Shown one piece after another: positions 27,950 through 51,576 of a DNA stretch of 64,000 nucleotides. The DNA comes from a virus. Each line of letters starts with the position of its first letter. Position 1 is the stretch's first letter. The position numbers and the translations under genes were made by a program. Under the pieces are notes generated by a model. The model was not told the origin of the DNA. It worked only from the letters and a program-made list of their open reading frames with translations, and searched no databases. The stretch spans positions 32,001 through 96,000 of IMG/VR virus record IMGVR_UViG_3300022748_000015; one strand, 5' to 3'.

Positions 27950-28188
27950 TTGTTGGTTGGACATGTTGAATCTTTAAATTCTACTCTTGTAGGCATAAAG
28001 CATCCACACTGGGAACATTGGCTAGTGTAGTTCACAAATAGTGGGCAATCTCGGCAAATATCTAATCTAGCATTGCTGATGTCTTGGTCTATCTTCTCTA
28101 GAGATAGGATATCTGTTGATTTAGGTGATATCTCCGTACCCCGTGTGCTGACTACTTTCTCTTTATAGAGCTGCCAAGCACTAGGCAT
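27943..28188 (-). CDS. Small Cys-rich protein (DUF6171-like)
   Basis: RLDICRDCP...CSQCGCFM.......STCPTNKW. Confidence 0.7.
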   Translation of the reverse strand: MPSAWQLYKEKVVSTRGTEISPKSTDILSLEKIDQDISNARLDICRDCPLFVNYTSQCSQCGCFMPTRVEFKDSTCPTNKW

Positions 28189-28522: not shown

Positions 28523-30640
28523 TTATAATTCCTCTTCCATCATACTCGGATCAATAGAGAAGATTCCAAAGCGTGGTGGGAATGAAGGTGGTGTTGCTGT
28601 CGTTGTTGTAGTTGGAGCAGCAGTAGTGGTAGTTGGAGCGGCTGTAGTGGTAGTCCCTCCTACTCCACTTCCACCAGTACATTCGTAATATGCTGTTGAT
28701 CCGGTAGATCCATCAGAACACTTATAGTAAAACTGTTGTACATAACCGCTACCGCAGATAGTTCCTGTATATCCGTTTGTACTATACCCTACATAGAATA
28801 AATTACCATTCACTCTGCCATAACTAGGGCCACACGTCACCCCTGCGGTAGTGGTAGTGGTTGTAGTAGTAGTTGTAGTGGTAGTTGCTGCTCCTGACAT
28901 TGTTATTCCGGCTGAATTTGATGCCAGAGTTGCAAATGAAGAGCTTAATGCTGAGACAGACAAGCTATATGAATTGCCAGGAGATACTGCCCAGCTTACG
29001 CTTGTTCCACCATATCCAGATGATGAGTCTATAGTAACTCCCCCGGAACTCAAGGTGTATGAGTATAGTGCTGTTCCAGATGGTGGATTAGACCAACTAC
29101 CTGTAAGTGAGGTAGATGAGTTTTCAGTTAGAGTTACTGTAAATGGTGCTGATGCAGGAGTAGTTACACTCGCGGAGTTTGATGCTAGAACTGTAAAAGA
29201 TGAGCTTTTCGCTGAAACAGTTAGGGTATAGCTTGTTCCTCCGGCTACAGTCCATGAGCCAGAGGTAGCACTCGTAGCATTTCCAGACGCAATAGTCGTG
29301 CCTCCAGATGAGAGTACATAGTCATATATTGCAGTACCAGCTGGAGGATTTGACCAACTTCCACTAACTGATGTAGCAGAGTTAGCGGTTAAACTTACTG
29401 AAAATACTCCAGGTGGGTTTGTCGTGGTAGTTGTAGTAGTGGTAGTTGACCCTACTGTCGCTGTTCCAGAGAGAAGTACTACACCGCCAGCTCCAATTGC
29501 TTGAACTGTAAACGTATAGCTATGGCCCGAAACTAGTCCAGTAAAGTTATAGAAGTTAGCCGCTGAGTTTGAATAAGATGATCCATTGTAGGACACTCCG
29601 CCTGGATCTGTATTATCAACCAACGAGAAACTAAAATAGGATGTCCCCGTTGGGCCCATGGTCCATGTGGTATTTATTTGAGTATCTGAGGCTGCTACTG
29701 CTGTCACATTTAGACTACCTACTGTAGTCACGTAGGAACTGGAACCTTGATCACCAACACCGTTTATATTAGTTCCAACTACTGTAGCATAGTAGATACC
29801 ATCAGCAACTCCAGTAAATGTTGTACTAGTATCGGTAGCACCTATTCCAGAGGCGGTATATGCTAGAGCACCAGTATTACCGTTATATAGCTTGACTGCT
29901 ACTGCTGATAGCGGAGCACCTCCCTCGTGACCATAGAAATTCCAGGTTACGGATATAGTTCCGGCTGCAGTTACACTTGCATTTACAGCTGGGCCTGCTG
30001 GCTTAGAGGTAATTAGCGCTGAGTTTGACCAATCTGACTGTAAGGATAGTCCGTTAGCATTTCTAACTGCAACTACAAATGAAGTATTGTATCCAGGAAT
30101 TAGGCTATTTGCGGTTACTGGTGAAGAAGATCCTTCTCCAACCTTAACTGTTGAGTTTAGGCTTGAGTATACTTCATAAGTAGAAACAGTTTTACCACCA
30201 GTAGCTCGAGGAACGAATCCAACAGTAGCTCCCGGGTTTCCGTAACTTCTATCAGTACCGATATTAGTTGCTGTACCAATAATTGGAGCCTGAGGCACGG
30301 TTGTAGCCACTACTGCAGCCGAAGGTGCTGAAGGAGCTGAATCTCCGTTGGTCCAATAACCAATGGCTTTAATGGTATAAGTATAAGAAACACCACTCTG
30401 TAGTCCAGTAATATTGATTGGTGAAGTAGAGCTTATAGCTGTAAAATTTCCTGGACTAGATGTTGCTTGGTAGTAAAGTGTGGGACCGCTAGTCGGATCT
30501 GGAGTAAAACTTATATCAACTGATCCATTATTATATTGACGGTTAAGTCCTACGTCTGTAGCAGAGATATTTGTTGGAGCTTTTGGTGGAAGATATGTCC
30601 ACACATTTGCTGAAGCTCGTCCTCCCAGGAATGGCTTCAT
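28523..30640 (-). CDS. Multi-Fn3 putative fibre-tip/adhesin with poly-Thr tracts and conserved C-terminal tag
   Basis: Likely start MKPFLGGRASA at 30640, 2 nt after the upstream stop (track start 30715). About six Fn3-like repeats; T9, T13 and (T4AAP) tracts; ends PPSFPPRFGIFSIDPSMMEEEL. Confidence 0.75.
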   Translation of the reverse strand: MKPFLGGRASANVWTYLPPKAPTNISATDVGLNRQYNNGSVDISFTPDPTSGPTLYYQATSSPGNFTAISSTSPINITGLQSGVSYTYTIKAIGYWTNGDSAPSAPSAAVVATTVPQAPIIGTATNIGTDRSYGNPGATVGFVPRATGGKTVSTYEVYSSLNSTVKVGEGSSSPVTANSLIPGYNTSFVVAVRNANGLSLQSDWSNSALITSKPAGPAVNASVTAAGTISVTWNFYGHEGGAPLSAVAVKLYNGNTGALAYTASGIGATDTSTTFTGVADGIYYATVVGTNINGVGDQGSSSYVTTVGSLNVTAVAASDTQINTTWTMGPTGTSYFSFSLVDNTDPGGVSYNGSSYSNSAANFYNFTGLVSGHSYTFTVQAIGAGGVVLLSGTATVGSTTTTTTTTTNPPGVFSVSLTANSATSVSGSWSNPPAGTAIYDYVLSSGGTTIASGNATSATSGSWTVAGGTSYTLTVSAKSSSFTVLASNSASVTTPASAPFTVTLTENSSTSLTGSWSNPPSGTALYSYTLSSGGVTIDSSSGYGGTSVSWAVSPGNSYSLSVSALSSSFATLASNSAGITMSGAATTTTTTTTTTTTTAGVTCGPSYGRVNGNLFYVGYSTNGYTGTICGSGYVQQFYYKCSDGSTGSTAYYECTGGSGVGGTTTTAAPTTTTAAPTTTTTATPPSFPPRFGIFSIDPSMMEEEL
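28528..28591. repeat. 64-bp perfect repeat, copy 1 (copy 2 at 47509-47572)
   Basis: ATTCCTCTTCCATCATACTCGGATCAATAGAGAAGATTCCAAAGCGTGGTGGGAATGAAGGTGG read identical at both sites. Confidence 0.9.
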
Positions 30641-30642
30641 GA

Positions 30643-32040
30643 CTATGCCATCAAATCGCCAACAGCAATCCAGGAGTTGGTTCCTGGACGCTTGATAAGA
30701 GTTGCTGACGCCCAACGGGTGCGAATTCTAAGACCAGGAACTCCCTGGATTGTTACGTTTCCATTAGCTGGAGTTAGGGTTACAAAACCAGTTCCAGTAC
30801 TAATTACTGTAATTTGTGCACCAGTAGTAAATCCAACGGTTGCCTCATCGGGGACATATAGGTTGGTATCCGAACTACTTGATATCTCTACGATTTGACC
30901 ATCATCAGATAGCGCAAGTGTATAGCTAGTGGCTAGCTGATTAAACGAGTAGTGATACGAAACAGGTCCGGTTGGTCCAGTCACTCCAGGCCCTGTAGGT
31001 CCTGTTACGGTGGATGCTGGTCCGGTTGGTCCAGTCACTCCAGGCCCTGTAGGTCCTATTGCTCCTGCAGTTCCTTGAATTCCTTGCACACCCTGAGGTC
31101 CGGTTGGCCCCTGCACACCCTGAGACCCTGCGGTTCCAGTTGGACCAGTCGCTCCCTGGATTCCTGCACCAGTTGCGCCAGTAGGACCGGTTGGTCCCTT
31201 AGTTCCTGTTGGACCAGTAACCGAAGGTCCAGTTACAGAAGGTCCGGTAGCACCCGTTGGGCCGACTCCACCCTGCGGTCCAGTTGGTCCAGGATTACCC
31301 TGCACACCCTGGACACCTTGAGTACCTTGCGGCCCGGTTACACCGGTGGCACCTTGTATACCAGTTGGGCCAGTTACGGAAATACCTATAGGTCCGGTGG
31401 CTCCAGTAGGGCCCACTACATTTGAAGGAGCACCAGTCGGTCCAGTTGCACCGGTCTCACCCTGAGCACCTGTTGGTCCAGTTGGTCCTTTATCTCCAAC
31501 ATCTCCAGTACGAGCAAAGGTGATGTAGATACCAGCTGTATTTGAAATTGAAGTAACCGAGCCAGAAACATAGGCAATAGGTACTTCAAAATAGGTGTCA
31601 TGGTGGTAGTGATTGCCAACTATTGAATAGTAGATATAGTTTTCTGGAGCATTTATCTCCGAAATTTTAAAAGTTCCCTTGATGGCAGAAGATGAGTCAT
31701 CAATAGTTTGTAGGAAGCTTGAGATATCTGTATCAGATAGGTCGTACCAAGAAATATACATTTCTGTAGCACTAGTTAATAGATTATTGAAGCTTAGATT
31801 ACCGTGCCCTGGGTTTTCATCAATAACTGATGTTAGGTAGTGGTATTCATATGTTGCTCCACCAAAAGTACCCTGAGGACCTTGCGGTCCAGTCGCACCA
31901 GTTGGTCCAGTTACAGTAGAGTCAGCACCAATGGGACCTTGATCACCCTGAGGACCAGTTGGTCCCGTAGGACCATGAGCACCAACAATTACCGGCTCCC
32001 ATTGTCCGGAATCTTGGTTAAATTGCTTTAATTGGCTCAT
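30643..32040 (-). CDS. Collagen-like fibre protein with shared C-terminal beta domain
   Basis: (Gly-X-Y)n rich in GPT/GAT/GVQ; ends ...[17 protein letters not shown]...W...GDLMA. Confidence 0.85.
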
Positions 32041-33649: not shown

Positions 33650-33657
33650 TTTCTTCC

Positions 33658-38739: not shown

Positions 38740-39426
38740 CTAGTAGATAGGGGTGCCGTTCTTAATACCCTGCTTCCATTCTGCCTGCTGTACAGCCTGC
38801 TGTTCACGCACCTTAGTGACCTCCTCGTCCCACTCCTTGATGCGCTCCTCCGAATACTCGGATTCGGCAAAATCCCAGAATGCTCCGATAGTGTGGCGAG
38901 TCCCTGTTAGAACTTCCTTAACCTGGTGTACATTGTTAATTCCCCCCGGGAATGTAATTAATTGACCCGATTTAGGTTTAATTGTTAAGCTGTGGTCTCT
39001 AAAATCGAGTTCTCCACCCTCGTAATCATCGTTTACATAGAGTAGGCAAACAAACTTACTTTTCTCCCATGCTGACCAGTTGCCATCCATATCGGTATTA
39101 TCCGAGTGGAACGGTGCAAAAGCTCCCTTTTCCCATTTTTGGGCATGGCTAGATACAGACTTAACTGGGCGCTGATGCGCATCTTCTACATACTCTTTAA
39201 GTCTTGATGCTAGGTTTCCTAGGTAATCCTTAGGCAATCCGTACTTCTCTAAAAGTGGTTCGTCGGGTAGAAGGCTCATCCCGTATGACTCGAAAAATGC
39301 CGACATTGTCCACGGTAGTTCAGGATCTTCGAAGTAGGATACGAGCTTTTGCTGGTCCTCTACCGGGATGAAGTCGTCGTAGCAGATGATATCTTCCTTT
39401 AAGAATCTTTTATTCTCGATGCTCAT
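38740..39426 (-). CDS. 2OG-Fe(II) oxygenase, prolyl 4-hydroxylase-like
   Basis: HSD...LLYVNDDYEGGEL...HQV...R. Confidence 0.9.
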   Translation of the reverse strand: MSIENKRFLKEDIICYDDFIPVEDQQKLVSYFEDPELPWTMSAFFESYGMSLLPDEPLLEKYGLPKDYLGNLASRLKEYVEDAHQRPVKSVSSHAQKWEKGAFAPFHSDNTDMDGNWSAWEKSKFVCLLYVNDDYEGGELDFRDHSLTIKPKSGQLITFPGGINNVHQVKEVLTGTRHTIGAFWDFAESEYSEERIKEWDEEVTKVREQQAVQQAEWKQGIKNGTPIY

Positions 39427-39886
39427 CGGTTGTCTCTCCTGTATATCCTAAGTTAGAAAGAAATCTTTCGTGGTCAAATCTTTGATTGTCTCTAGAAAAT
39501 ATCTTAGCAAACGTAAAAATTAGTTTATTAAAAGTTGGTTCTGGCGTCTCTAATTTAGCCGATTCTAGAGCTTTAGTAACCTCTAGGTAGTCATTTTTTA
39601 GGAACGTACATTCTCCGCCACGTGGGCGTTTAAGTATTTTTTCATGTGTAGTGCCGGTAGGCTCGTATAAAGTCACGGTTAGATATTCTTTCGCAAATCC
39701 CCAGTCGGAGTAGGCTGCATATCCTGTAGCTGCATCCAGGGCATTGTCATAGAAGTAGATAGATCTGACTGGATTCTCGCCATCTCTAGCTACGGTTAGC
39801 ATGTAGCCAGAAGCCACTTTATCTCTAACTTCTAACTTAAACTTTTCAACCATATCCAGGTTAACTGGATTTAAATCTCCAGACAT
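39410..39886 (-). CDS. Hypothetical protein
   Basis: 158-aa ORF coupled on both sides within the oxygenase run. Confidence 0.65.
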   Translation of the reverse strand: MSGDLNPVNLDMVEKFKLEVRDKVASGYMLTVARDGENPVRSIYFYDNALDAATGYAAYSDWGFAKEYLTVTLYEPTGTTHEKILKRPRGGECTFLKNDYLEVTKALESAKLETPEPTFNKLIFTFAKIFSRDNQRFDHERFLSNLGYTGETTDEHRE

Positions 39887-40536
39887 CAGCTGTCTTTTCT
39901 TAGTAGGAGCTTACTCTTCCAGTGATGAGTAATAAGCATTTTTCTACCTTTAGTAATTTCACACGACTGGTGGAGGTAGGGAAGGTTGGATGGAAACATT
40001 ACTATGCTTCCAGCCTTAGGTTTTAGCTTAAGGTCTATGGAAGGATCAACGAAATATAACTCTCCGCCTTCATAGTCATCATTCAAATAGACAACGATGG
40101 TGTATGCAATATCGTAGTTTTGCTCATTCCAGTCAATGTGCGGTCCCATGAACTGGCCTTCAGAGTATTTATTTATGCCAATCTTTGTATTTGGTAGCTT
40201 CATGGCTTCTAGCGCATACTCGAGCTGTTCGGGATCTATTCCGTATTTAAAGGCGTATTCAATAGCGCATATCCCCATGGAAGTGGCTATTGTTCCAAAA
40301 ATCCCGATGATTGCTTGCTTAGTGGTGAGGTCTGATTCTTCAGTTAAAAGATCTTTGACCATACTCTTTAAGTCACCATATCGATGTGACCCCTCTGAAT
40401 TAGCATACCAAGGCAGCCATGGGGTTAATGCAATACTATTAGTCTTTTCAATGTCATTGACTACTGATTCTATATTTGGAATTGCGTTCTCGAAATATAG
40501 GATATTGTTGTAAACCTCTTTATAGGCAATGCCCAC
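39886..40536 (-). CDS. 2OG-Fe(II) oxygenase, P4H-like
   Basis: HID...VVYLNDDYEGGELYF...HQS...K. Confidence 0.9.
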   Translation of the reverse strand: MGIAYKEVYNNILYFENAIPNIESVVNDIEKTNSIALTPWLPWYANSEGSHRYGDLKSMVKDLLTEESDLTTKQAIIGIFGTIATSMGICAIEYAFKYGIDPEQLEYALEAMKLPNTKIGINKYSEGQFMGPHIDWNEQNYDIAYTIVVYLNDDYEGGELYFVDPSIDLKLKPKAGSIVMFPSNLPYLHQSCEITKGRKMLITHHWKSKLLLRKDS

Positions 40537-40538
40537 AG

Positions 40539-41336
40539 TTATGCCTCTGGTGTTAAATACGGGTTTACAATTGGCTCGTACTGGGATCCTGCGTTAAAGA
40601 ACTTACGAGACTCTTCATCATGTTGATCATAGTCTGGGTGGAATACAAATCCAGGGAACATGTATTTATCTCCAGACTTCATGATGTGAACCTGATGCTT
40701 GTAGGGATGCGTAGACGGGAAGATCAATGCTGATCCAGCCTTTGGCTTACGCCAGAAGTCAATTAGACCTGAATCCTTAGCATCCTCGATATCTTCTTCT
40801 GGCTTCAGTAGGTCATTCTTTGGGTCGCGGAGATCATAGTCTCGAATGATGAATGAGATTTCCCCACCCTCGTAGTCTTCATTCAGATATAGAACAATAG
40901 AGTACTTCAAAGTACGGTCGCCAGCCTGGGCATCAAAGTGGGCCCCCATTGCACAGCCTGGTCGATACTTCATGATTCCTACGAAAGGAGATAGATTTGG
41001 CTCATAATCGAACTCTCGGTCTCTAAAGTAAGCTTCCGCTACCTTCTTAACACCTGAGCGAATCTGATCAATAATGTACTGAACATCTGCCTTATATTCC
41101 TCTGGAAGTTGGTCAACCAGATCAGGATTAAAATCTTTTTTACCACCAAAAGTGTGACCATCATTGCTATTTGATAGCCACTTACCCCACTTAGGGATGA
41201 CAGAGTAGACTTCCTCGACCGAATCAAGATCTTCAATCATCTTAATGAGTTTACGAGGGTCCTCGATTACGTTCTCGTATAGGAAAACCTCTTCATGAAG
41301 TTTCTCAGCTAGGTGCATTTCTTTATTCTCTGACAT
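40539..41336 (-). CDS. 2OG-Fe(II) oxygenase, P4H-like
   Basis: HFD...VLYLNEDYEGGEI...HQV...K. Confidence 0.9.
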   Translation of the reverse strand: MSENKEMHLAEKLHEEVFLYENVIEDPRKLIKMIEDLDSVEEVYSVIPKWGKWLSNSNDGHTFGGKKDFNPDLVDQLPEEYKADVQYIIDQIRSGVKKVAEAYFRDREFDYEPNLSPFVGIMKYRPGCAMGAHFDAQAGDRTLKYSIVLYLNEDYEGGEISFIIRDYDLRDPKNDLLKPEEDIEDAKDSGLIDFWRKPKAGSALIFPSTHPYKHQVHIMKSGDKYMFPGFVFHPDYDQHDEESRKFFNAGSQYEPIVNPYLTPEA

Positions 41337-41369
41337 GTATATAATCCTATCTTAAGTATCTATTTGTAA

Positions 41370-41963
41370 TTAAAAGTCCCAAAAGGCCATAATGGTGTAT
41401 CTAAATCCTGAGGTTACTTCCTTCACCCCGTGAATATTTTCAAAACCACCGGGAAAAACTAGTAAGTCATTCTTTTCCGGTTTTATCTCTAGGCCATGAT
41501 CTGGGAAGTAGATCTCCCCGCCTGAGTAGTCAGAATTAGCATATAGTATAGATACATATTTCAACTTACTAAACTCAGATACATTGCCCTTGTAGTCTGA
41601 ATTATCTGAGTGTGGGTCAGCTTGTCCACCTTTTGACCACCGCTGGGCTTGTACATAGGTATCTAGTACAGGGTGTTCAAAGATACTTTCTACAGTTGAT
41701 TTAAACTTTTTACTTAGGTTTAAAAAGTAATCCTTTGAAAGACCTCTAGACTCGAGGTTACTTTCCATATCTACTAAAGAGATTCCATAGGACTTATTGA
41801 ATGATGTCTCGCTCCAAGGAAGTTCATCATTTTTTAAAATATCCATAAGGATATCCAGCTCTTTTTCATCCAGGAAATCAGATATTCTAACTAGTCGATT
41901 AGTTTTAATACCCAACTTACTATCTAAAATAGGCTCATCTTTGTAGTAAGTTATAGTATTCAT
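41370..41963 (-). CDS. 2OG-Fe(II) oxygenase, P4H-like
   Basis: HSD...ILYANSDYSGGEIYF...HGV...R. Confidence 0.9.
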   Translation of the reverse strand: MNTITYYKDEPILDSKLGIKTNRLVRISDFLDEKELDILMDILKNDELPWSETSFNKSYGISLVDMESNLESRGLSKDYFLNLSKKFKSTVESIFEHPVLDTYVQAQRWSKGGQADPHSDNSDYKGNVSEFSKLKYVSILYANSDYSGGEIYFPDHGLEIKPEKNDLLVFPGGFENIHGVKEVTSGFRYTIMAFWDF

Positions 41964-42655
41964 TGAGGTTGACGTTCACCTGTGTGCTTGGCGATAGTCC
42001 AGAAAAATGGGCAAGTGTAGCGAATGCCTGATTCGATCTTCGTTACTCCATGGATGTAGTTCATATCACCAGGGAAGAAGTATGCAGCTCCACGCTTAGG
42101 CTTGAACTGAATTCCTTGGAGTGGGAAATACAACTCCCCACCCTCGTAGTCATCATTGATATAAAAGAGTCCAGCAATATCGTAGTAAGGGAAATCATTA
42201 GGGATACCGCGGTTAGGCTCTTCATGCAGTTCTTTGTCTGCATGGGGCATCTGCAACTGACCTGGAAGCCAGCGCACCATAGCCGGGCTAGTGGGGATTG
42301 CGTCAACCTGAAGGTACTTATCTACCTCAACCTTTAGGCGAGCTACCATTCCTTCAATAATCTTAGGAATCTCTTCACTAGTTTTACGGATCGTATCGTA
42401 TGTGGCTACTCGATCCTTCCAGTACTCTGAGTCATAGATTACGGTACCATCGTCATTGTAGTGAGTTTCAGTCACGTCCCAATATTCGTTATTACGAATG
42501 AAGGTATCTAAAGTAGTAATCTCTTCTTCAGTCATAAAGTTTTCTAGAGTAACAATGTTGTCAGGGGAGTTACCAAAGAATCCTGAAGGAGTTATAGAGA
42601 CTCGGTCATTCATCGCGTGTTGGTTATTGGAGTTTTCGAACTCGTTATTCTGCAT
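41960..42655 (-). CDS. 2OG-Fe(II) oxygenase, P4H-like
   Basis: HAD...FYINDDYEGGELYF...HGV...R. Confidence 0.9.
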   Translation of the reverse strand: MQNNEFENSNNQHAMNDRVSITPSGFFGNSPDNIVTLENFMTEEEITTLDTFIRNNEYWDVTETHYNDDGTVIYDSEYWKDRVATYDTIRKTSEEIPKIIEGMVARLKVEVDKYLQVDAIPTSPAMVRWLPGQLQMPHADKELHEEPNRGIPNDFPYYDIAGLFYINDDYEGGELYFPLQGIQFKPKRGAAYFFPGDMNYIHGVTKIESGIRYTCPFFWTIAKHTGERQPQ

Positions 42656-42668
42656 AGTTATATCCTAG

Positions 42669-43400
42669 TTATCCGTAAATTCTTCTAGTCCAGACGGAGT
42701 TCTTGTATACTCCACCATCTCGTACTCGATACTTGGTTGAGTTATCATGGTTACTCTTAACCATAGTCTTGTAGTCAGGAACCGAGATCTCTGACTCCCA
42801 GTCCTCACGCTTGAAAGGGATGAGCTGAGCATAAGGAGTTCCAGCTGGTAGAATTCCAGTCCAACCTTCCTTAATAAAGAAAGGCATGGTTCCTGGTAAA
42901 TTCACCTTATCATTGTCAATCACGCCATTAGTTGTCTGGAATGGTAGATCATACCGATTCAGTGGGTGAGTGTACAGAACGCTGTACCCCTCCGGAACTG
43001 ATACGGCCCAGTCAGCCCACCAAGCAAAGTGCTTCTCGTGATAACCCATGGGGTGGACAAACTGAGGTAGTGGGTCTCGGGGGCCGCAGAAATCTTGGTT
43101 CTGAGGGTCTAATACTTTTACTGCAATTTGATTATTTGAATCTAGATAGAACTCTAGGTCACATGGTGTTTTATAGACATATCCAGTCATCATTACATCC
43201 ATGATTGCTGGGCACGCCTTCCATGTAGGGATCTTCCCTTGCTGTGGGTGCTCCCATGGCTCGTTAGTCATTGGATTGATGGCAAACCGATCTGCTTTAC
43301 GATACCAGTCTGGAATGTTTTTAGATGTGGGTTCAGGTGTTGACTTACTGTCTTTTTTAAGCCACGGGCGGTTAGCAATAAATTTAATCTTGTTGCTCAA
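42669..43400 (-). CDS. DUF6065-like protein, paralog of 32699
   Basis: IPDWY, WKACPAI.D, W..SVPEGYSVLYTHPLNR, LPAGTPYAQLIPFKREDW. Confidence 0.6.
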   Translation of the reverse strand: MSNKIKFIANRPWLKKDSKSTPEPTSKNIPDWYRKADRFAINPMTNEPWEHPQQGKIPTWKACPAIMDVMMTGYVYKTPCDLEFYLDSNNQIAVKVLDPQNQDFCGPRDPLPQFVHPMGYHEKHFAWWADWAVSVPEGYSVLYTHPLNRYDLPFQTTNGVIDNDKVNLPGTMPFFIKEGWTGILPAGTPYAQLIPFKREDWESEISVPDYKTMVKSNHDNSTKYRVRDGGVYKNSVWTRRIYG

Positions 43401-44118
43401 TCGTGGCTCCTGTCACTGGGCATGTAATGGTCTTCAATTTAATCGATTTAGTTTCGTGTTTTCCGACGACTTCACCCTTGTAGTTCAAAGCATCTCGATA
43501 CATTTTTGACCAGTCCCCGACACCATTTTTGATTTCTGCAGCATCTCCGTACTTGGTTACTTCTTCCCAGTACGCACGGTCAAGGAATTTATCTGAAATC
43601 TCTAGTTGATAGTCGCCCTCTAAGGCTCCTAAAGAGATAGGGAGAACTGCAGCAACTGGAGTTCCAGCCGGGATGAATACTTCAATGTTTGGTTCCGTTA
43701 GACGCCAACCCAGAGGTAGTTCTGGCATATAGAATGAAGTACTAATCAGGGTTGTATAGCATTGAGCACCACGAATGAACTGATTTGGAACAGGCATCGA
43801 TAGAAGGGTAGTGTTCTGATCAGTTTTAAACACTAAACCTGATCTGAAGCTAATAGTCGCATTTCCGCGGCCAGTGTATACATACTCTTCCCCCTCGAGG
43901 ACTTTGATGTGGGTGTCAGTAGTATCGGTAATTCCATCCCAGATGAAGCGAATATCCTTAGGGAACGATATTCCCCAGCCTAGTTTATTAGTCAGACTTA
44001 CAGGGAAGCACATATATGCGTGCTTATCTGCAGTCTCGTCCATCCAGTCTCGTCTAGCGGTTAATGGTTCAATGTTTGCTACATTGTTTCCAGCCTTGGT
44101 TACAGTAATAGTCTTCAC
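43384..44118 (-). CDS. DUF6065-like protein
   Basis: R.WMD...HAYMCFPV...N..GW, IPAGTPVAAVLPI. Confidence 0.6.
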   Translation of the reverse strand: MKTITVTKAGNNVANIEPLTARRDWMDETADKHAYMCFPVSLTNKLGWGISFPKDIRFIWDGITDTTDTHIKVLEGEEYVYTGRGNATISFRSGLVFKTDQNTTLLSMPVPNQFIRGAQCYTTLISTSFYMPELPLGWRLTEPNIEVFIPAGTPVAAVLPISLGALEGDYQLEISDKFLDRAYWEEVTKYGDAAEIKNGVGDWSKMYRDALNYKGEVVGKHETKSIKLKTITCPVTGATIEQQD

Positions 44119-44876
44119 TAGTTACCAGTCTCCTCGTAGAACTTAGGGTTGTGGAACTTCTCTGAGAAGTCAAGCATGGTAACCATCGAATATTTGACAC
44201 CAGAGATTACTGGCATTGCACGATGCGGGTACATGAAGTTTGAAGGGAAGATATAAGTCTCTCCAGCCTTTGGTTTAATGGTTGCACCCTGTAGACGGAA
44301 GAACAATTCTCCACCTTCATAGTCATCATTAGGAAAGCTAACTAGAGATACTACGCAGTTGTATGAGTAGCCGTGGTCGTGGTGCTCCTGGAAGTGCTGA
44401 CCTTCTCCATAACGAACGTAGTTAGTTGCTTCCCAGTATCGAAGCTCTCCTACGTTGTATCGGCGGGTATAGTCCTTAACAGCTTGGAGTTGGCGATAGT
44501 TGACATCATCTGCCAACTCTTGTAGTGCTAGTCCAGCTTCTGACTTATCGTTGATAATGTCTGACTTTTTGTATTTAAAATCTACGCAATCACGGTATTC
44601 TGGCATTCGCATGGCATAGCCAACCATAGCCTCGGCGTATGAGTAGTTATTGCTTGGATCAGCTAGCACTGTTTCCAGTCGCTCGATGATATTCATATCC
44701 TTTGGTAGGACATCTCGATATACCCAAATTCCTGACCCAGGGGCAACCTCTTCGCAGGATGTCCAGGTTTTCTCTTCGATGTTATACCAAGCTTTTAGAC
44801 GTTCTTCTACTGTCTTCTGCTCTTGCTTACCTAGCTCTTCTATTTTCGCTGAGGTACTTACTATCTCTGGTTGCAT
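44118..44876 (-). CDS. 2OG-Fe(II) oxygenase, P4H-like
   Basis: HHD...PNDDYEGGELFF...HRA...K. Confidence 0.9.
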   Translation of the reverse strand: MQPEIVSTSAKIEELGKQEQKTVEERLKAWYNIEEKTWTSCEEVAPGSGIWVYRDVLPKDMNIIERLETVLADPSNNYSYAEAMVGYAMRMPEYRDCVDFKYKKSDIINDKSEAGLALQELADDVNYRQLQAVKDYTRRYNVGELRYWEATNYVRYGEGQHFQEHHDHGYSYNCVVSLVSFPNDDYEGGELFFRLQGATIKPKAGETYIFPSNFMYPHRAMPVISGVKYSMVTMLDFSEKFHNPKFYEETGN

Positions 44877-45610
44877 TAGTATTTCAACTCATATTCCGTA
44901 ATTACATGTGGTACTCGACGATTAACATTATCACGATCATTGTAGTCGCTCATGATGACTATAGCGTACTTGGTTCCGTCGATCATATCTTCAGAGGCAT
45001 GCTCATAGATAAAGATAGACGGGAATACTACAATATCTCCTGCTTTAGGCTTAATCTTCAAGCCATCCATTCGAGGGAAATAAATCTCTCCGCCTTCATA
45101 GTCATCATTCAAATAGATAACGATAGATACAGTACTGACATAGGTTGGACCATGGTCAGCGTGAATCTTAAAGTGGGTACCCTTACCGGGATACTTTACA
45201 AAATTAAATGCCTCGAATGACTGCATCCCTACACCCCAGTAGCGCCCGTAGTCTGATACGCAGCTATACATGCTCTGAAAAATTTCTTCATGCATATCCA
45301 GAAGCTCGGCATTCTGAGGAGTTCTAGGCCCTAAATCCTTCGAGCCAAACTTAAAGTCTAGGGCATTTCTAGCTGAAACATCCGCCTCAGCTGAGTTGGT
45401 AACCATGGCACCCTGCCATTTGTAGGGTCCTGACCCATCTAGCTTATTTTCGAGGGTTTGAATAAACTTTGCGCATTGCTCTGGTGTATAGGCGCCTCTA
45501 TAGATATTTATACCTAGAGCTGGATTTAGTACGGTAACGTTACCATACTGTCGATCTGGCATTCTATTAGATGAGGTCTCTGATCTATCTTTAGTGAACC
45601 AATCATTCAT
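44876..45610 (-). CDS. 2OG-Fe(II) oxygenase, P4H-like
   Basis: HAD...IYLNDDYEGGEIYF...HAS...K. Confidence 0.9.
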   Translation of the reverse strand: MNDWFTKDRSETSSNRMPDRQYGNVTVLNPALGINIYRGAYTPEQCAKFIQTLENKLDGSGPYKWQGAMVTNSAEADVSARNALDFKFGSKDLGPRTPQNAELLDMHEEIFQSMYSCVSDYGRYWGVGMQSFEAFNFVKYPGKGTHFKIHADHGPTYVSTVSIVIYLNDDYEGGEIYFPRMDGLKIKPKAGDIVVFPSIFIYEHASEDMIDGTKYAIVIMSDYNDRDNVNRRVPHVITEYELKY

Positions 45611-45626: not shown

Positions 45627-46625
45627 TTATTCTAAAATAATTGGCTCTAAAAGTCTAAAATCTTCTGCGTGTCTAGGTATACCTAAGTTGTTATAGTTTG
45701 GATTATATTCGCAAATTCTATGATCCATCCCTGACATTTTGCAATACTCTTCTACGGACTCTTTAGGGATGTCTCCATATATGCCTGTAAGTCTCCCTGA
45801 TAGTAATAGATTTAGTTTCAACATTGAATCATCTGATTGTTTCCAGAAAGCATCTTTATTCATATCTGACCACGGGCGGTGGGTAGTCATTCTAGAGTGG
45901 ATCTCGTCTGGGTACTCTTTGTATGTATTGTGGTAATAAAGGATTCTTGGTGTTGAATAGAAACGCCACCCGCGGCACCATGCTTGGATGGTTACATAAA
46001 TCTCTTCACCGTGATAACACATATCCGGGTCTAGCGGGACTTCATCTACAAACTCTTTAGGTGCAAATACCCAGCTGAGCTGTAGGTAGTAGTCTTCATG
46101 AACCGAACTATCCTCCGGAACTAGCTGAGTTCCCGGGAAACTATGGCCTGGAATATATCCTTCAGTTATGAATGGTCTATAGCTATTTTTTACTCGTCCT
46201 GCTCTAGAAGTATAGCTAATGCTCCAGTCTGAATTCATCTCGTACTCTGGCCCAGAGACCGTGAGTAGCGCTTTAGGATTTATTTCTTTTGCTTTTTCGT
46301 ATTCCTCTAGAACTATAGTGTCCCAGCCTTCGGCAAATAAGTTGTGCCCGCAGGTATAGAGAATATAGTCATATTCTTCAGATACTTCTGTTGTCTTATC
46401 CCTAGACCAAAGTACCCCTCTATATTTTGAGAGATCGTATTTTCTATAGACTAGCTGACCCTCAGGGATGAAACTTAGGTCTGCATGAAGCTCTGGCTTA
46501 CTTTGCTCCGATACAATCGAGAATATTAGATTCCCTGGCTTAGCTGCCTTCTCATAGCAATCTCTAACTGACTCAGCTAGTTGACGCTCGCGATAGGCGA
46601 TCATTGAGACAAGTATTTTTGTCAT
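45627..46625 (-). CDS. GT60-like glycosyltransferase (paralog of 27011)
   Basis: ILVSMIAYRE, TCGHNLFAEGWD (D..H motif diverged), LSWVF, YHGEEIYV..QAWCRGWRFY.P, YH. Confidence 0.7.
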   Translation of the reverse strand: MTKILVSMIAYRERQLAESVRDCYEKAAKPGNLIFSIVSEQSKPELHADLSFIPEGQLVYRKYDLSKYRGVLWSRDKTTEVSEEYDYILYTCGHNLFAEGWDTIVLEEYEKAKEINPKALLTVSGPEYEMNSDWSISYTSRAGRVKNSYRPFITEGYIPGHSFPGTQLVPEDSSVHEDYYLQLSWVFAPKEFVDEVPLDPDMCYHGEEIYVTIQAWCRGWRFYSTPRILYYHNTYKEYPDEIHSRMTTHRPWSDMNKDAFWKQSDDSMLKLNLLLSGRLTGIYGDIPKESVEEYCKMSGMDHRICEYNPNYNNLGIPRHAEDFRLLEPIILE

Positions 46626-47416
46626 AGAGGTATATATCCTTCAACATTCTTAATAAAGTCTATACCTACAACAGTGCATTGCTGACATCCAGGACATTCC
46701 TTATTACCTTCCGGTAAGTCGTTAAAGTATGGCCCATGCCCGGAATGCTCGTAATATCTTATGTCACCATCGAGCTTATACTTCTTCATAGCCTCTGCGT
46801 ACTGGATATTTCCTTCTTCGGAGTAGCAATCAATGTCATAAATCCAGTGGTCTTTAGTTGCATAATTAGCAAAAAGAACTGTTACGTAAGCTTCTTCATC
46901 GTCTACTGGATATCTAGGCCGAGTATGTACCTGCTGTTGGCCCATAAAAAAGATTCCGCTATTATTTTGCTCCTCGAAACGCTCACCATCAATTGAGAGC
47001 CCCCAGCTCGGAACTCGATGTGATTCCACGCAAATATCCGCTGTGTATTGAGTAGCTGGTTGATCCATGTGCTCCCAGATGTATGGGGTTATTCCCTTAT
47101 ATTGCTGGTATCTGGCTACCCAAACTATTTTTAGTCTAAGTTCTGGTAATCCCCATTGTTCTTTTCCTAGATTCTCTAGGTACTCCCAGACCTCTGGTGG
47201 AAAGTCTACCTCTGTATGCCATCTACCGAGGATGTTGTGATACGGAGTTGCATTAGGTTTATTTTCTGAACCTGGTCCCCAGTTTGCTTGTTCATCAATA
47301 GTTGTTTTTACCTTATTCAAAATATCTTTAGTAAATACATTTTCTAGATAAAAAGCTGGCTTGCCTTCTGGAAGCTTCCATTTAATGTTTGGACTAGTAT
47401 CAGCGTGTATAGGCAC
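46622..47416 (-). CDS. Divergent 2OG-Fe(II) oxygenase-like protein
   Basis: EHMDQPATQYTADICV...W.LSIDG...FMGQQQVHTRP; HxD...H pattern of a different phage 2OG family; Cys-containing tail. Confidence 0.6.
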   Translation of the reverse strand: MPIHADTSPNIKWKLPEGKPAFYLENVFTKDILNKVKTTIDEQANWGPGSENKPNATPYHNILGRWHTEVDFPPEVWEYLENLGKEQWGLPELRLKIVWVARYQQYKGITPYIWEHMDQPATQYTADICVESHRVPSWGLSIDGERFEEQNNSGIFFMGQQQVHTRPRYPVDDEEAYVTVLFANYATKDHWIYDIDCYSEEGNIQYAEAMKKYKLDGDIRYYEHSGHGPYFNDLPEGNKECPGCQQCTVVGIDFIKNVEGYIPL

Positions 47417-47440
47417 AATCTCTCCTGGGAATGCTAAAAG

Positions 47441-47470
47441 AGGAGCAGATTTCTCTGCCCCTCTTCTAGG
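47441..47470 (-). terminator. Intrinsic terminator after the (PPFF)n gene
   Basis: Minus strand AGAGGGGCAGA-GAAA-TCTGCTCCTCT followed by T run. Confidence 0.6.
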
Positions 47471-47482
47471 TTATATCTTTTT

Positions 47483-48448
47483 TTATTCTTCGTCTTCTTC
47501 GACTTCAGATTCCTCTTCCATCATACTCGGATCAATAGAGAAGATTCCAAAGCGTGGTGGGAATGAAGGTGGGAAGAACGGTGGGAAGAACGGTGGGAAG
47601 AACGGTGGGAAGAAAGGTGGGAAGAAGGGGAAGTAAGGGAAGAAAGGTGGGAAGAACGGTGGGAAGAATGGGAAGTAAGGAGGGAAGAACGGTGGGAAGA
47701 ACGGTGGGAAGAACGGTGGGAAGAATGGGAAGTAAGGAGGGAAGAACGGTGGGAAGAACGGTGGGAAGAACGGTGGTGTAGTAGAGATAGTATTAGTGGT
47801 TACAGTAGCCGAGTTACCATTTGCGTTAGTGGCATAGAGGCTAAAGTACTCATTTGTTCCACCTGGAACGGGGGTATCGTAGTATACAGCGCTAGTAGGA
47901 GTGCCGCTATTGGCTAGGGACCCTACTCCGATGACGATAGGAGTATTTGGGGCTAGCGATGGAACCAGCGTAGTTTGAGTAATAGCTGAACCACCAGTTG
48001 CTCCTACAGTCCAAGCAATTCGGTCAGAGTCAGCACTTGGCGAGCTTAGGGCTGGCGACTGAGGAGCTTGAGGAACAGTAGTAACTGCAACTGAAGATGA
48101 TGTTACTGCATTAGAATTTCCAGCAGCATTCTTTGCAACTACAGAGAATGTATATGAAACTCCAGAAGCAAGACCTTCAAACACAAACGGTGCACCACCA
48201 GTAGGTAGTGTAGTTGTATTCTTAGTTACAGTTGCTGGGGTTGAAGTGATGTCATAGCTTGTTGCTGCTGGAGATAGTGCTGGAAGGGTCCATACTAGGT
48301 TTACAGCACCACCCTGACCATTAGTTCCGGTAGCTACAGCAAGGTATGGTCGGTTAGTTCCAACGTTAGTTGCAGTTGTGATTGTTACATCATTAGGCTG
48401 TAGGAAGTCATTCTGTGACTGTGAGTGTCTACCAGCTCTTTTTGCCAT
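47483..48448 (-). CDS. Two-Fn3 putative fibre-tip protein with 76-aa (PPFF)n repeat and conserved C-terminal tag
   Basis: Fn3-like W..PA...Y.I...GL.SG.SYTF.V.A.N; then PPFF repeats; ends PPSFPPRFGIFSIDPSMMEEESEVEEDEE. Confidence 0.8.
   Translation of the reverse strand: MAKRAGRHSQSQNDFLQPNDVTITTATNVGTNRPYLAVATGTNGQGGAVNLVWTLPALSPAATSYDITSTPATVTKNTTTLPTGGAPFVFEGLASGVSYTFSVVAKNAAGNSNAVTSSSVAVTTVPQAPQSPALSSPSADSDRIAWTVGATGGSAITQTTLVPSLAPNTPIVIGVGSLANSGTPTSAVYYDTPVPGGTNEYFSLYATNANGNSATVTTNTISTTPPFFPPFFPPFFPPYFPFFPPFFPPFFPPFFPPYFPFFPPFFPPFFPYFPFFPPFFPPFFPPFFPPFFPPSFPPRFGIFSIDPSMMEEESEVEEDEE
47509..47572. repeat. 64-bp perfect repeat, copy 2
   Basis: Identical to 28528-28591. Confidence 0.9.
47549..47776. 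repeat. Coding tandem repeat, 12-bp unit GGGAAGAACGGT with 9-bp variants
   Basis: Encodes 12 exact PPFF tetrads plus PPYF/PFF/PYF variants on the minus strand. Confidence 0.95.
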
Positions 48449-48465
48449 TTCTTAATTCTCTCCTA

Positions 48466-51400
48466 TTAAGCTGACAGGTCTCCGTAGACCAACCAGGTGT
48501 TTGCTGCACGCTTTAGTAGTGTAGCAGATGACCACTGAGTGCGAAGCTTCAGACCTGGAGTAGCATTTACGGTAACTCCACCGGCACCAGCAATTGTTAC
48601 CTGACCTGTTGAAGTCTGAATAATATCAATTGTAGTGCCTACTGGGAAGTTCAATGTTGAGTCCAGAGGAATAGTTAGAGTAGTGGCTGATGTATTAGCA
48701 ACTTCAATGATTGTGTCACGCTCAGTTAGTGCGCTTAGGGTGTATGAAGCGCTCTTACCCGAGATAGTAGTAATTGAAGGAACGCCAGCAACAGTTTGAA
48801 CTGACCCATCTGAGAATGTAACTCCACCGGAAGCGAGGCTGATTGTCTTGTTGGTGAGGGTCTGAGTTCCAGTTAGGGTTGCAACCACTGCAGTATCAAT
48901 ACCGATAGTCACAGCGCTTGAACCGTTGTATGAAGTTCCGGTTAGGCCGCTGTTGATGGTAAGAGTGTTTAGGTTACTTCCTAGGGTGATACCTGAGATG
49001 GTTGATGCTGCAAGCTTAGAAACTGCGATAGCAGCTGAGTCTGAAATATCGCCATTAACAATGGTCCCGTCCAGGATCATTGCTGAAGTAACAGTTCCAG
49101 TTGGGAGGGTTACAGTTCCTGTAAAGGTTGGACTGGCCGTTGGAGCCTTTGAATCAATCTGAGTCTGGACTGCCGAGGTTACGCCATCAAGATATTGGAG
49201 CTCGGTGTTTGAGACATTTCCAATAGTTGCAGATGTTGCCTGCAGAGCACCAATCTTTAGAGTGTCATAGGTAACTCCAGTGAAGTCGACTACGCTATCT
49301 GTTGGTTCGGTTGCTCCAGATACTAGCTTCCATACTCCATCGGAGGCATCGCGGACAAGACCAGTGTGTGGGTGGTTAGAGCTGTTGGTTCCACCATTAC
49401 CGTAGGCACCATAAATACCTATATCTAAAATATCAGCTGAATACTGCGAGTCAGCTAGGTAGATAAGTGAGTCAGCTACTGCAAGGTTAGTACTATTTAC
49501 AATAGTTTGGGTTCCGGTGACCGTTAGGTTAGCAGTAGTTAGGTCAGTTGCATTAACTGTAGGGGCAACAAGAGTTCCAGTGAAGGTTGGGCTAGCTAGG
49601 TTAGCCTTAAGATCCAAAGCAGTCTGAGTTGCAGTAGATACTGGCTTATTGGCATCCGATGTATTATCTACGTTAGCAAGACCAACCATTGACTTGGTAA
49701 TTCCGGAAACGGTACCGGTAAAGGTTGGGTTTGAAGTAGGTGCCTTAGAATCCAACTGAGTTTGGATTGAAGATGTTACTCCATCTACATATCCGATCTC
49801 GGCGGCAGATACTGTACCGATAGATGTAGTTGCAGGAAGAACTACAGTTCCAGTAAGTGTTGCGTTGGCAAGTGGTGCCTTTAGGTCAAGTGCAGCCTGC
49901 TGAGCAGTTGATACAGGCTTGCCAGCATCCGAAGTGTTATCTACGTTGCCGAGTCCTACCATAGCCTTAGTTACACCGGAAACGGTTCCTGTGAAGGTTG
50001 GTGACTCGATCGGTGCGTAAGTTGCTGCAATAGAGGCTGTGCTTAGCTTTGAATCAAGCTGAGCTTGAATGCTTGAAGTAACACCATCTACATAGCCTAG
50101 CTCGGTTGCAGATACGTTTCCGATAGAGGTTGCTGCTGGTAGAACTACAGTACCGGTAAAGGTTGGGTTTGAAGTAGGTGCCTTCAAATCTAGGGCAGAT
50201 TGGGTTGCTGTAGAGATTGACTTATTAGCATCTGAGGTGTTGTCAACATTAGATAAACCAACCATTGCTTTGGTAATACCGGAGGTTGTTCCGGTAAATG
50301 TGGCATTGGCAGTCGGGGCCTTGCTATCAAGCTGAGCCTGAATACCTGAGGTAACACCATCTACGTAACTAATCTCTGACGCTGACACATTGCCAATTGA
50401 GGTAGTGGCAGGGAGAACGACAGTTCCAGTTAGAGTCGGGGAGTTAATGTCTGCCTTGAGAGCTATCGAGTTGTTGATAGTGGTTTGGTCGGCAGTTGTT
50501 AGAAGGAGTGCAGTATTAGCAATACCATGTACGTTGGTAGTCGTAGTGTTGTGGGTGTCGATGTCTGACTTAGTTGCAAGTGCTGCAGTATTTGCGATAC
50601 CGTGCACGTTTGTGGTGTCTAGGTTGTGGGTATCGATGTCTGAGAGCATCGCTAGATCGGCAGTATTAGCGATACCATGTACATTTGTAGTATCGCTTGT
50701 GTGTGCATAAAGAGTTGATGAAACAACTAGGTCGGCAACATTAGCAATACCATGGACCTCGGTGGTTTGGGCCATGTGATATGCCATCATATTGTTGGCA
50801 TAGTTCTCTAGCTGAGCTGTTAGATCGGTAATCTCTGTAGAGGTTGTTCCAGCATATGGAAGAGCAGTCCAGTGGGAGGTACCATTACCGATCTTGAACT
50901 TACCGGTATTTGACTCTAGAACGAAGCTGCTTGCCTCAGGTACTGCATTAGCAGAAGTCAGGTTGGCGGCAGTGTCTACAACAAGAGTTGCCTTAGTTGC
51001 AATGTTATTAGCAACAGTAGTGGAGAAGTTAGGGTCATCTCCAAGAGCTGCGGCCAGTTCATTTAAGGTATTTAGTAGGTTTGGTGATGAATCTACTAGC
51101 GCAGAGATGGCTGAGTCAGCGTAAGCCTTTGCTGCTGATTCAGCAGTATCTGCCTTGGTCTGAGCGCCAGTCTTAGTTTCGAGGGCAGCAGTGTTTGCAA
51201 TACCGTGAATATTAAGAATTGAAGAGTTGTGGGCATATAGCTCTGAATCTGTATATGACTCTGCAGTGGAAACTCCAACATCTACCCTATTCTGAGCACC
51301 AGTCTTAGTCTCTAGTTCGTTTGTATCAGCGATGCCGTGAACGTTAGTGTGTGAGCTGCTGTGTGCTGAGACTGTATTTGCAAGGTCAGCAATTAATGCA

Positions 51401-51576
51401 TCAACCTGACTAGGTAGATCGGTTGCATATCCGAGATCAGCCCAAGCGAGGCCGGCTCGACCAATTTTAAACTTGCCAGAGTCTGACTCAAAGCCGACTT
51501 CACCATCAGAAAGGGTAGGGTTAGTTGAGGTCCAGTTAGCGGCAGTACCGCGTCTAAGCTGAATCTTAATTGCCAT
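48466..51576 (-). CDS. Long tail fibre with Mtd_N-like N-terminus and shared C-terminal beta domain
   Basis: IQLRRGTAANW...L.DGEVGFE.D.GKFKIG; six H-x7-HGI repeats; repeated PTFTGTV...YVDGVTS.IQ.QLDSK; ends PGLKLRTQWSSATLLKRAANTWLVYGDLSA. Confidence 0.85.
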   Translation of the reverse strand: MAIKIQLRRGTAANWTSTNPTLSDGEVGFESDSGKFKIGRAGLAWADLGYATDLPSQVDALIADLANTVSAHSSSHTNVHGIADTNELETKTGAQNRVDVGVSTAESYTDSELYAHNSSILNIHGIANTAALETKTGAQTKADTAESAAKAYADSAISALVDSSPNLLNTLNELAAALGDDPNFSTTVANNIATKATLVVDTAANLTSANAVPEASSFVLESNTGKFKIGNGTSHWTALPYAGTTSTEITDLTAQLENYANNMMAYHMAQTTEVHGIANVADLVVSSTLYAHTSDTTNVHGIANTADLAMLSDIDTHNLDTTNVHGIANTAALATKSDIDTHNTTTTNVHGIANTALLLTTADQTTINNSIALKADINSPTLTGTVVLPATTSIGNVSASEISYVDGVTSGIQAQLDSKAPTANATFTGTTSGITKAMVGLSNVDNTSDANKSISTATQSALDLKAPTSNPTFTGTVVLPAATSIGNVSATELGYVDGVTSSIQAQLDSKLSTASIAATYAPIESPTFTGTVSGVTKAMVGLGNVDNTSDAGKPVSTAQQAALDLKAPLANATLTGTVVLPATTSIGTVSAAEIGYVDGVTSSIQTQLDSKAPTSNPTFTGTVSGITKSMVGLANVDNTSDANKPVSTATQTALDLKANLASPTFTGTLVAPTVNATDLTTANLTVTGTQTIVNSTNLAVADSLIYLADSQYSADILDIGIYGAYGNGGTNSSNHPHTGLVRDASDGVWKLVSGATEPTDSVVDFTGVTYDTLKIGALQATSATIGNVSNTELQYLDGVTSAVQTQIDSKAPTASPTFTGTVTLPTGTVTSAMILDGTIVNGDISDSAAIAVSKLAASTISGITLGSNLNTLTINSGLTGTSYNGSSAVTIGIDTAVVATLTGTQTLTNKTISLASGGVTFSDGSVQTVAGVPSITTISGKSASYTLSALTERDTIIEVANTSATTLTIPLDSTLNFPVGTTIDIIQTSTGQVTIAGAGGVTVNATPGLKLRTQWSSATLLKRAANTWLVYGDLSA

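Follow-up and report, generated by a model that had tools for sequence, protein, structure and literature searches.

A perfect 64-nucleotide repeat at the ends of two phage fibre-tip genes: probable footprint of a recent cassette copy within one genome

Two genes for putative fibre-tip proteins in a virus from the IMG/VR collection (record IMGVR_UViG_3300022748_000015) end in the same 64 nucleotides. Our preferred reading, to which we give a probability of roughly 0.7, is that this repeat was left behind when a C-terminal cassette was recently copied between the two paralogous genes. The stretch of DNA analysed, called the window throughout, is 64,000 nucleotides long (positions 32,001 to 96,000 of the record), and the genes in question are termed P0001 and P0002. 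The copying would have been non-reciprocal and would have taken place inside a single phage genome, with P0001, whose protein carries fibronectin type III (fn3) domains and an array of PPFF units [fn3-(PPFF)n], as the donor and its distant paralog P0002 as the recipient. The copied cassette, or tag, would occupy a hypervariable terminal slot, in which other proteins of the same family have a Hint domain, a Cys-rich tail, or a short tail of basic/aromatic type. The features concerned are the following.

47483..48448, minus strand: P0001, 321 residues; conserved N-terminus, two fn3 domains, about 19 PPFF-type units, the tag, and an acidic extension, SEVEEDEE
47549..47776, minus strand: the (PPFF)n array of P0001, ending in the family-wide terminator FPPRF, which is the first part of the tag
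47509..47572, minus strand: tag copy A, the degenerate last two PPFF units (PPSFPPRF) plus GIFSIDPSMMEEE; residues 293-313 of the 321-residue fn3-(PPFF)n protein P0001
28523..30640, minus strand: P0002, 705 residues; a homologous two-fn3 head, more fn3 repeats, Thr runs, a Cys-containing domain, TTTTAAP repeats, and the tag
28528..28591, minus strand: tag copy B, the same 64 nucleotides; residues 684-704 of the 705-residue P0002, then Leu and the stop codon

Comparison of the window with itself (repeat family D19) bore out the claim of the first-pass annotation that two DNA-identical segments of 64 bp stand between differing flanks. Positions 28528-28591 and 47509-47572 match at 64 of 64 nucleotides (100%), and a chance origin for such a repeated 64-mer in 64 kb is effectively impossible. 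The repeat is direct, with a spacing of 18,981 nucleotides, and no more than these two copies occur across the whole 124,826-nucleotide virus record. Each copy forms an in-frame part of the 3' end of its minus-strand gene, where it encodes PPSFPPRFGIFSIDPSMMEEE, and the nucleotide identity extends one base past the 21 codons. The upstream flanks are unrelated, a PPFF array in P0001 and a TTTTAAP/Thr run in P0002. On the C-terminal side P0001 continues with SEVEEDEE and a stop codon, P0002 with a single Leu and a stop codon. The tag itself is made of two pieces: an array terminator, PPSF-PPRF, such that tag residues 1-8 are the end of the PPFF array, and a 13-residue linear motif, G-I-F-S-I-D-P-S-M-M-E-E-E.

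That the shared segment is young can be seen from its codons. All 21 of the 21 codons are identical between the two copies in this genome, whereas orthologous tags from other phages have the same codon at only 4-5 of 12 positions that encode the same residue. Selection on the peptide therefore does not preserve codons, and the identity of the in-genome copies points to a recent common DNA ancestry. The carriers had been described as otherwise divergent, which holds for the sequences flanking the tails but not for the proteins throughout: across the two-fn3 heads, residues 5-211 of P0001 are collinear with residues 6-197 of P0002 at 31% identity. Judged by their sequences, P0001 and P0002 are distant paralogs, and the 31% amino acid identity of the heads contrasts with 100% nucleotide identity over the last 21 codons.

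The direction of copying is indicated by the relatives of P0002. Its four orthologs (P0124-P0127), which are 54-61% identical to it and begin with the same MKPF, lack the tag and end in a Cys-containing tail (C..INLSNC.ACGG..GGVCA) that sits after Thr/Ala/Pro linkers. Because these orthologs carry the Cys tail instead of the tag, the copy would have gone from P0001 to P0002. Recent transfer and ongoing homogenisation had both been proposed to account for the synonymous identity; the 21 shared codons and the Cys-tailed orthologs favour recent transfer. Homogenisation as an ongoing process is the less supported of the two, an analogous pair of slots described below having reached a proportion of synonymous differences (pS) of 0.67.

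The family to which P0001 belongs is large and undescribed, and is defined here from sequence. There are at least 485 metagenome homologs of P0001 (E<=0.01), with N13, D14, F15, L16, and P18 invariant, and the family occupies 59 loci in IMG/VR. Its architecture comprises a conserved N-terminus (..S-x-x-N-D-F-L-x-P..), two fn3 domains, a (PPFF)n array that usually ends in FPPRF or a basic-aromatic junction, and a variable C-terminal slot. P0001 has the array (about 19 units, ending FPPRF) and is followed by a battery of oxygenase genes. The head of P0002 is 35-45% identical to members of the family; its only PPFF units, two in number, lie within the tag and so came with the copied cassette, and its followers are not the oxygenase battery but genes for a 111-residue protein, a DUF6171 protein, and a glycosyltransferase, GT60b. 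The tag context of P0001 is confirmed independently, at the level of assembled sequence, by P0003, a 98% identical protein from four other contigs that has the same tail after only 2-3 PPFF units. Set against the roughly 19 units of P0001, this means that array length is unstable between close relatives. An AlphaFold2 model of P0001 gives the fn3 part a predicted local distance difference test score (pLDDT) above 90 and the array and tail scores of 31-46; the low values are compatible with a disordered linear motif in the tail and say nothing about partners. Searches of the cultured phages in INPHARED by DNA, by protein, and with the 21-residue peptide returned no relatives, and a literature search returned no paper on PPFF phage proteins, on DUF6065 or DUF6171, or on PF11397 in phages.

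The content of the terminal slot was tallied for 119 listed homologs of P0001, P0001 itself being excluded. Hint-like domains of more than 100 residues are the most frequent content (66 proteins), ahead of Cys-rich tails (18), tails no longer than 12 residues (16), and S[IV]DP/acidic tails (8); S-S-x-R-x-K tails number 3, or 4 if P0101, which the script binned as having no PPFF array, is counted. These contents are hypervariable and chemically diverse, and the slot is by all appearances a hot spot for the turnover of modules. When metagenomes were scanned with a degenerate DNA pattern, six further fn3-PPFF orthologs with FPPRF-[GA]-x-x-S-[IV]-D-P came to light, their tails reading PPRF-G-G-Y-S-I-D-P-R-E-L-D.., PPRF-A-I-Y-S-V-D-P-D-E.., and PPRF-A-I-S-S-I-D-P-R-E-L-D... 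Across the S[IV]DP tails, F-P-P-R-F and the S, D, and P of the motif are invariant. Because both these metagenome orthologs and some of the listed homologs carry S[IV]DP tails, the tag is evidently a native, conserved tail class of the PPFF family. Other searches were less productive: a scan of viral_contigs for back-translated FGIFSIDPSMMEE gave no match, an ESM Atlas search with the tail gave no usable match, and a tail profile run against 1.84 billion representatives found only P0003 and a chance IFSIDPN repeat protein, the HMMER composition filter probably hiding PPFF proteins.

Several details of the other slot contents may be recorded here. Hint is the tail of over half of the PPFF-family proteins (as seen among P0004-P0122 and at L028:9989-11302 and G003 71967-73226); the domain begins right after FPPRF or an F-K/R junction, and in a subset of the Hint tails Ser or Ala replaces the Hint Cys1. 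Some short-tailed members stop where Hint cleavage would leave them (...PYFPYFRGY, compared with ...PYFPYFKGYK/C, the slash marking the cleavage point). The tails of P0084, P0101, P0112, and P0118 have S-S-I-R-F-K or S-S-I-K-L-K followed by about 15 residues, which resembles the Ser/Lys motif of peptidase S74, with the chaperone domain absent.

The sharing of slot contents within a genome recurs. Among 15 related records, retrieved or assembled for this purpose, four other lineages have a second, larger fibre protein with the same slot content as the PPFF protein of its own genome. These second proteins combine a fibre N-terminus and a fibre C-domain with TP/AP/TTAA mucin-like linkers, small Cys domains, and a short PPFF stretch. 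The pair in G006 shares a Hint domain of 186 codons at 84% amino acid identity, with pS 0.67 and a proportion of nonsynonymous differences (pN) of 0.09 (pN/pS about 0.14), so slot copies can be old and can be kept by purifying selection in both genes. The pairs in G010 and L038 (G015) share a Cys knot, at 52% and 40% identity respectively, and both tails of the G004 pair end in F-RGY. The slots are mismatched in G003, G011, G012, and G014, the case of G002 is ambiguous, and the two Cys tails of G001 differ from each other. With five matched genomes against about five unmatched, an obligatory matching rule is ruled out. We read the slot as recombination-prone, with intragenomic copying common and with selection for matched ends possible but not required.

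Two large proteins from these genomes have further features. The 1238-residue protein of G004 (45805-49521) has at least six Cys-rich repeats of about 90 residues (repeat unit ..WYCTTS..NCAGCS..SGSGYSTAC..RTRTRTCP..), a PPFF array, and an F-RGY end as in the fn3-PPFF protein of the same genome. The protein encoded at L038:54-2465 is an 803-residue mucin-like fibre with a PASTA domain (E = 1.3e-10), which hints at peptidoglycan binding.

The exchange of C-terminal segments by recombination is well known from the mosaic tail-fibre genes of T-even, lambdoid, and P2/Mu phages. As in those genes, the swap described here is C-terminal, the ends vary faster than the N-terminal attachment parts, and the breakpoints fall at linker or repeat boundaries. 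It differs in that the donor and recipient are in the same genome, in that a 21-residue disordered tail and not a folded receptor-binding domain has moved, and in that the slot alternates between Hint, Cys knot, and acidic tag.

Some observations weigh against a recent intragenomic copy. Both breakpoints lie in non-homologous sequence, unlike those of textbook homologous gene conversion. The Thr-run/tag context of P0002 was not found in any other contig, only that of P0001 recurring; a search with the C-terminal region of P0002 and a pattern scan likewise gave no match, though these were probably swamped by Thr words. And selection, not recombination alone, may lie behind the matching of slots, which is seen in about half of the genomes that are informative. 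The last of these points leads to a rival account, in which both tips need the same terminal module for one partner (a dock on the virion or fibre, an assembly factor, or each other) and in which recombination supplies the copies and selection holds the ends matched. Matched ends do occur in five lineages and four module types, rare types included, and the G006 Hint domains have remained of the same type, with low pN/pS, despite near-saturated synonymous divergence; both window tips, moreover, follow fibres with a common C-terminal domain and have homologous heads. Against this stand about as many mismatched genomes (the four named above and perhaps G002), together with the two different Cys tails of G001, and a self-cleaving Hint domain is hard to square with a docking module in the mature protein. 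We regard selected matching as possible, though on balance unlikely.

Because the source is a metagenome assembly and P0002 with its tag is seen in one contig only, the contig might also be chimeric or mis-joined at a short shared word, so that the two contexts would not belong to one genome. A mis-join, however, cannot create a repeat, since both contexts must exist for there to be two occurrences, and they can be traversed only by a single linear path that takes in both copies and the 19 kb in between. Each copy is read in frame to a natural stop, the P0001 context is present in four other contigs, and analogous pairs in other assemblies argue for real biology; an artefact is thus very hard to credit. 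Hardly any more probable is a role for the 64 nucleotides as nucleic acid, whether as an RNA structure or as a recombination or retrohoming site, such as that of a diversity-generating retroelement (DGR), an invertase crossover, or a programmed 19-kb excision. The perfect DNA identity would fit such an element, as would the Mtd_N domain of a neighbouring fibre, which is named after a DGR target protein. Yet the 64 nucleotides fold like shuffled sequence (z -0.69 alone; z 0.37 in the P0002 context), and the peptide is conserved across phages with different codons. A DGR was rejected as a candidate on two counts, the lack of an RVT_1 match in the record, which is an estimated 73% complete and could have a reverse transcriptase in its missing part, and the identity of the repeats, which show no adenine-specific differences.

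Invertible fibre ends provide another point of reference. In phages Mu and P1 the Gin and Cin systems invert tail-fibre C-termini, with inverted repeats at the junction of constant and variable parts and an invertase as a requirement. The likeness is that a short repeat in fibre genes links alternative fibre ends; the window repeats, by contrast, run in the same direction and occupy the 3' end. Invertase switching was accordingly set aside, no inverted pairs having been found and the record having given no match to the Resolvase family. Recombination between the two direct repeats, which as the first-pass annotation pointed out would remove about 19 kb, is conceivable on paper.

Fibrous proteins can also end in self-cleaving modules, among them Hint/Hedgehog-type autoprocessing domains and the intramolecular chaperone of peptidase S74, known from endosialidase and T5 fibres. 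Such modules and our slot alike sit at the very C-terminal end of fibre proteins, and members of the PPFF family carry Hint (PF14890/PF07591/PF13403) or tails like S-S-I-R-F-K; the window tag differs in having neither Hint nor a Ser/Lys motif, and in extending only 13 residues past FPPRF. An identity of the tag with Hint was rejected (no Hint Pfam match in P0001 or P0002, and only 13-21 residues past FPPRF), as was one with peptidase S74 (F-S-I-D-P-S-M has no Arg or Lys). A related idea is that the tail is a C-terminal pro-piece, cut off in maturation at the invariant Asp-Pro or by a protease so that the mature protein ends near FPPRF; in that case the tag would help folding, keep the strongly hydrophobic array soluble, or set the timing. 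No peptide bond is more labile than Asp-Pro, and the D-P pair is invariant across divergent tags. The commonest slot content, Hint, begins right at the FPPRF or F-K/R junction, and some short tails end at the would-be Hint cleavage point. Set against these points, only 6-20 residues follow D-P, with no self-processing domain; S-x-x-R-x-K of the S74 type is absent from the tag; and Cys-rich tails are ill suited as a removable piece. We consider a pro-piece improbable. The copying of a cassette between paralogous tip genes accordingly remains our preferred account of the repeat itself, whatever the tail may do in the protein.

As to that function, the genes downstream of the two carriers offer some tentative clues.

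46622..47416, minus strand: oxy264, a 264-residue divergent 2-oxoglutarate (2OG)-Fe(II) oxygenase; HxD...HxR, Pfam-negative
45627..46625, minus strand: GT60a (PF11397); orthologs only in S[IV]DP-tag loci, CGH replacing DxH
38740..45610, minus strand: a battery of prolyl 4-hydroxylase (P4H)-like 2OG oxygenase genes and DUF6065-like genes; syntenic with the PPFF gene in 56/59 related loci, with any tail type
27011..28516, minus strand: the genes after P0002, for a 111-residue protein, DUF6171, and GT60b (canonical DxH)

The first-pass annotation had placed a GT60-like gene close behind both carriers and had suggested that the tag recruits modifying enzymes. Such a gene is indeed found downstream of each, as the second gene after one carrier and the third after the other, and in neither case adjacent. 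Of 59 viral loci, 56 have an ortholog of the P4H-like gene at 44876-45610, together with further oxygenases and DUF6065, behind the PPFF gene; the remaining three break off at or near the PPFF gene. The P4H battery is present whatever the tail and therefore goes with the array, not the tag, which disposes of the tag as a general recruiter of that battery. Some ground remains for oxy264 and GT60a, which co-occur with PPRF/S[IV]DP tails in a pattern confounded by phylogeny. Homologs of oxy264 lie directly downstream of the PPFF gene only in loci with PPRF tails, either PPRFMRIL or PPRFMRII (L010, L022, L023, L033) or S[IV]DP (L081/L082, L087, L088). Orthologs of GT60a (PF11397, E = 8e-21) are confined to the window, L087, and L088, all of them S[IV]DP loci. 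The co-occurrence of these enzymes with tail types is suggestive but not decisive, because all of the enzyme-bearing loci belong to one close clade (P4H 68-72% identical).

Though it has no Pfam match, oxy264 has a conserved HxD...HxR, and its model (pLDDT 88) has a 2OG-oxygenase fold. Its structural neighbours include the Trichoplax prolyl hydroxylase domain protein (PHD) at Z 12.4, PBCV-1 vCPH at 12.3 (5c5t among the matches), and a Pseudomonas P4H at 11.6; against Dictyostelium PhyA (6t8m), 155 residues align at Z 11.3 with a root-mean-square deviation of 3.3. These prolyl hydroxylases (Z 12.4-11.3) tie with AlkB-type and other oxygenase classes. The three GT60a orthologs (45627-46625; L087:2379-3398; L088:1096-2127) are 62% identical and have CGH in 3/3, where GT60b and its orthologs have DxH; the conserved CGH is probably functional, and the metal or donor chemistry may differ. 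In the window, G006, and G010, GT60b comes after Thr-rich fibre proteins whatever their tails, and it more likely serves the Thr runs.

With these enzymes in view, the tail could be a disordered acceptor or recognition motif in which the invariant Pro of S-[IV]-D-P, with acidic residues after it, would be hydroxylated by oxy264, after which GT60a would glycosylate the hydroxylated Pro, in the way that PhyA and Gnt1 act on Skp1. Copying of the tag would thereby bring a second fibre-tip protein under the same modification. We offer this as a tentative proposal, with the odds somewhat against it. Among the candidate functions we put a hydroxylation/N-acetylglucosamine (GlcNAc) acceptor or enzyme-recognition motif first, itself at low probability, ahead of a peptide for common docking or assembly and, in last place, of a pro-piece that is removed. 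Several observations weigh against modification. L081/L082 have S-I-D-P tails with no GT60a and with the oxygenase truncated to 202 residues; L006 has a PPRF tail (PPRFGGGVIFE) and no oxygenase gene; GT60a departs from GT60b at DxH; and the co-occurrence of enzymes and tails may be inherited within one clade and not be functional. A predicted complex of oxy264 with the 45-residue tail scored 0.03, which tells neither in favour of binding nor against it.

A more specific version, which we hold to be doubtful, would make the tail a portable acceptor tag of a phage-encoded, Skp1-like cytoplasmic pathway, in which a PhyA-like oxygenase would act first and a GT60 enzyme would add a GlcNAc cap. On Skp1, PhyA makes a hydroxyproline to which Gnt1, a GT60 enzyme, attaches GlcNAc; GT60 also includes a Thr-GlcNAc transferase of T. 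cruzi (PMC6939170, PMC3515798). The resemblance to the Skp1 pathway of Dictyostelium and Toxoplasma is that genes for a PHD-like 2OG oxygenase and a GT60 adjoin that for a protein with a near-C-terminal Pro and an acidic run. The likeness between DFT-P-EEEE of Skp1-like proteins and SID-P-SMMEEE of the tag is a loose one. Moreover, oxy264 is not assignable to the PhyA subfamily, given its structural ties, GT60a has CGH, and the substrate would be a phage fibre protein and not an SCF subunit.

Other systems compare with parts of this arrangement. The prolyl 4-hydroxylase of chlorovirus PBCV-1 acts on the virus's own Pro-rich repeats, and here too a virus has genes for P4H-like enzymes alongside those for Pro-rich repeat proteins. 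In the chlorovirus, however, it is the repeat array that is concerned and not a tag, and the P4H battery here is tail-independent. The leader and follower peptides of ribosomally synthesized and post-translationally modified peptides (RiPPs) are similar in that a short conserved peptide stands beside tailoring-enzyme genes, and transplanting a peptide of that kind to another protein would carry recognition with it. The carriers here, unlike RiPPs, are structural-type proteins of 321 and 705 residues with folded fn3 domains, and no RiPP recognition element, protease, or cyclase was identified.

The remaining neighbours of the two tip genes are as follows.

47434..47469, minus strand: hairpin with a 16-bp stem, directly past the P0001 stop and before the oxygenase gene; terminator-like or stabilising
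48466..51576, minus strand: a 1036-residue fibre with an Mtd_N start; its stop lies 17 nucleotides before P0001, and its C-terminal domain is common to other fibres
30643..32040, minus strand: a 465-residue collagen-like fibre with the same fibre C-terminal domain; its stop lies 2 nucleotides before the P0002 start

The hairpin separates P0001 from the oxygenase, GT60a, and P4H genes and lies outside the 64-nucleotide repeat. Its region folds with z = -3.8 over 148 nucleotides, and a simple terminator scan missed it because the T-run sits within the stem. The true start of P0002 is the ATG at 30640, 2 bases past the stop of the upstream fibre, where the orthologs begin with the same MKPF. A recurrent gene order (27011-34692 and 47483-51576 in the window; L025, L027, L050) runs from a fibre to a tip protein, a protein of about 110-150 residues, and a DUF6171 protein with four Cys. 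The fibre in this order has a shared C-terminal domain (..W..GDL.A), which in other phages is fused straight to a mucin-like tip and not encoded by a separate gene. The set of 111-residue protein, DUF6171, and GT60b also trails Thr-rich fibre proteins of other phages. The possibility that oxy264 and the 111-residue protein are a shared partner pair was ruled out, the two having no mutual similarity. The virus record encodes a tape-measure protein, PolA, and a primase-helicase, along with two WhiB-family genes above the Pfam cut-off (window 18899-19090 and 59897-60103; G000:C1:50899-51090 and 91897-92103), and thus represents a large tailed phage of Actinobacteria.

If the repeat is a recombination footprint and nothing else, it is an ordinary case of fibre mosaicism. 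What emerges from the sequences compared here is a shuffling of fibre-gene modules in which the sharing of slots within a genome is frequent but not obligatory. The fn3-(PPFF)n proteins make up an abundant, unannotated fibre family of lake phages in whose terminal slot Hint, Cys-knot, and short linear tails replace one another rapidly; the phages copy what the slot holds from one of their own fibre genes to another. Should the tail turn out to be a tag for modification or docking that can be transferred, it would be a clue to how these appendages are decorated and a small handle for engineering. An acceptor tag in particular would make this the first system of tags for hydroxyproline glycosylation in a bacterial virus. 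Movement of the cassette would then re-route which virion appendages are modified, and some of the orphan 2OG oxygenases and GT60 enzymes that lake actinophages encode would have a function.

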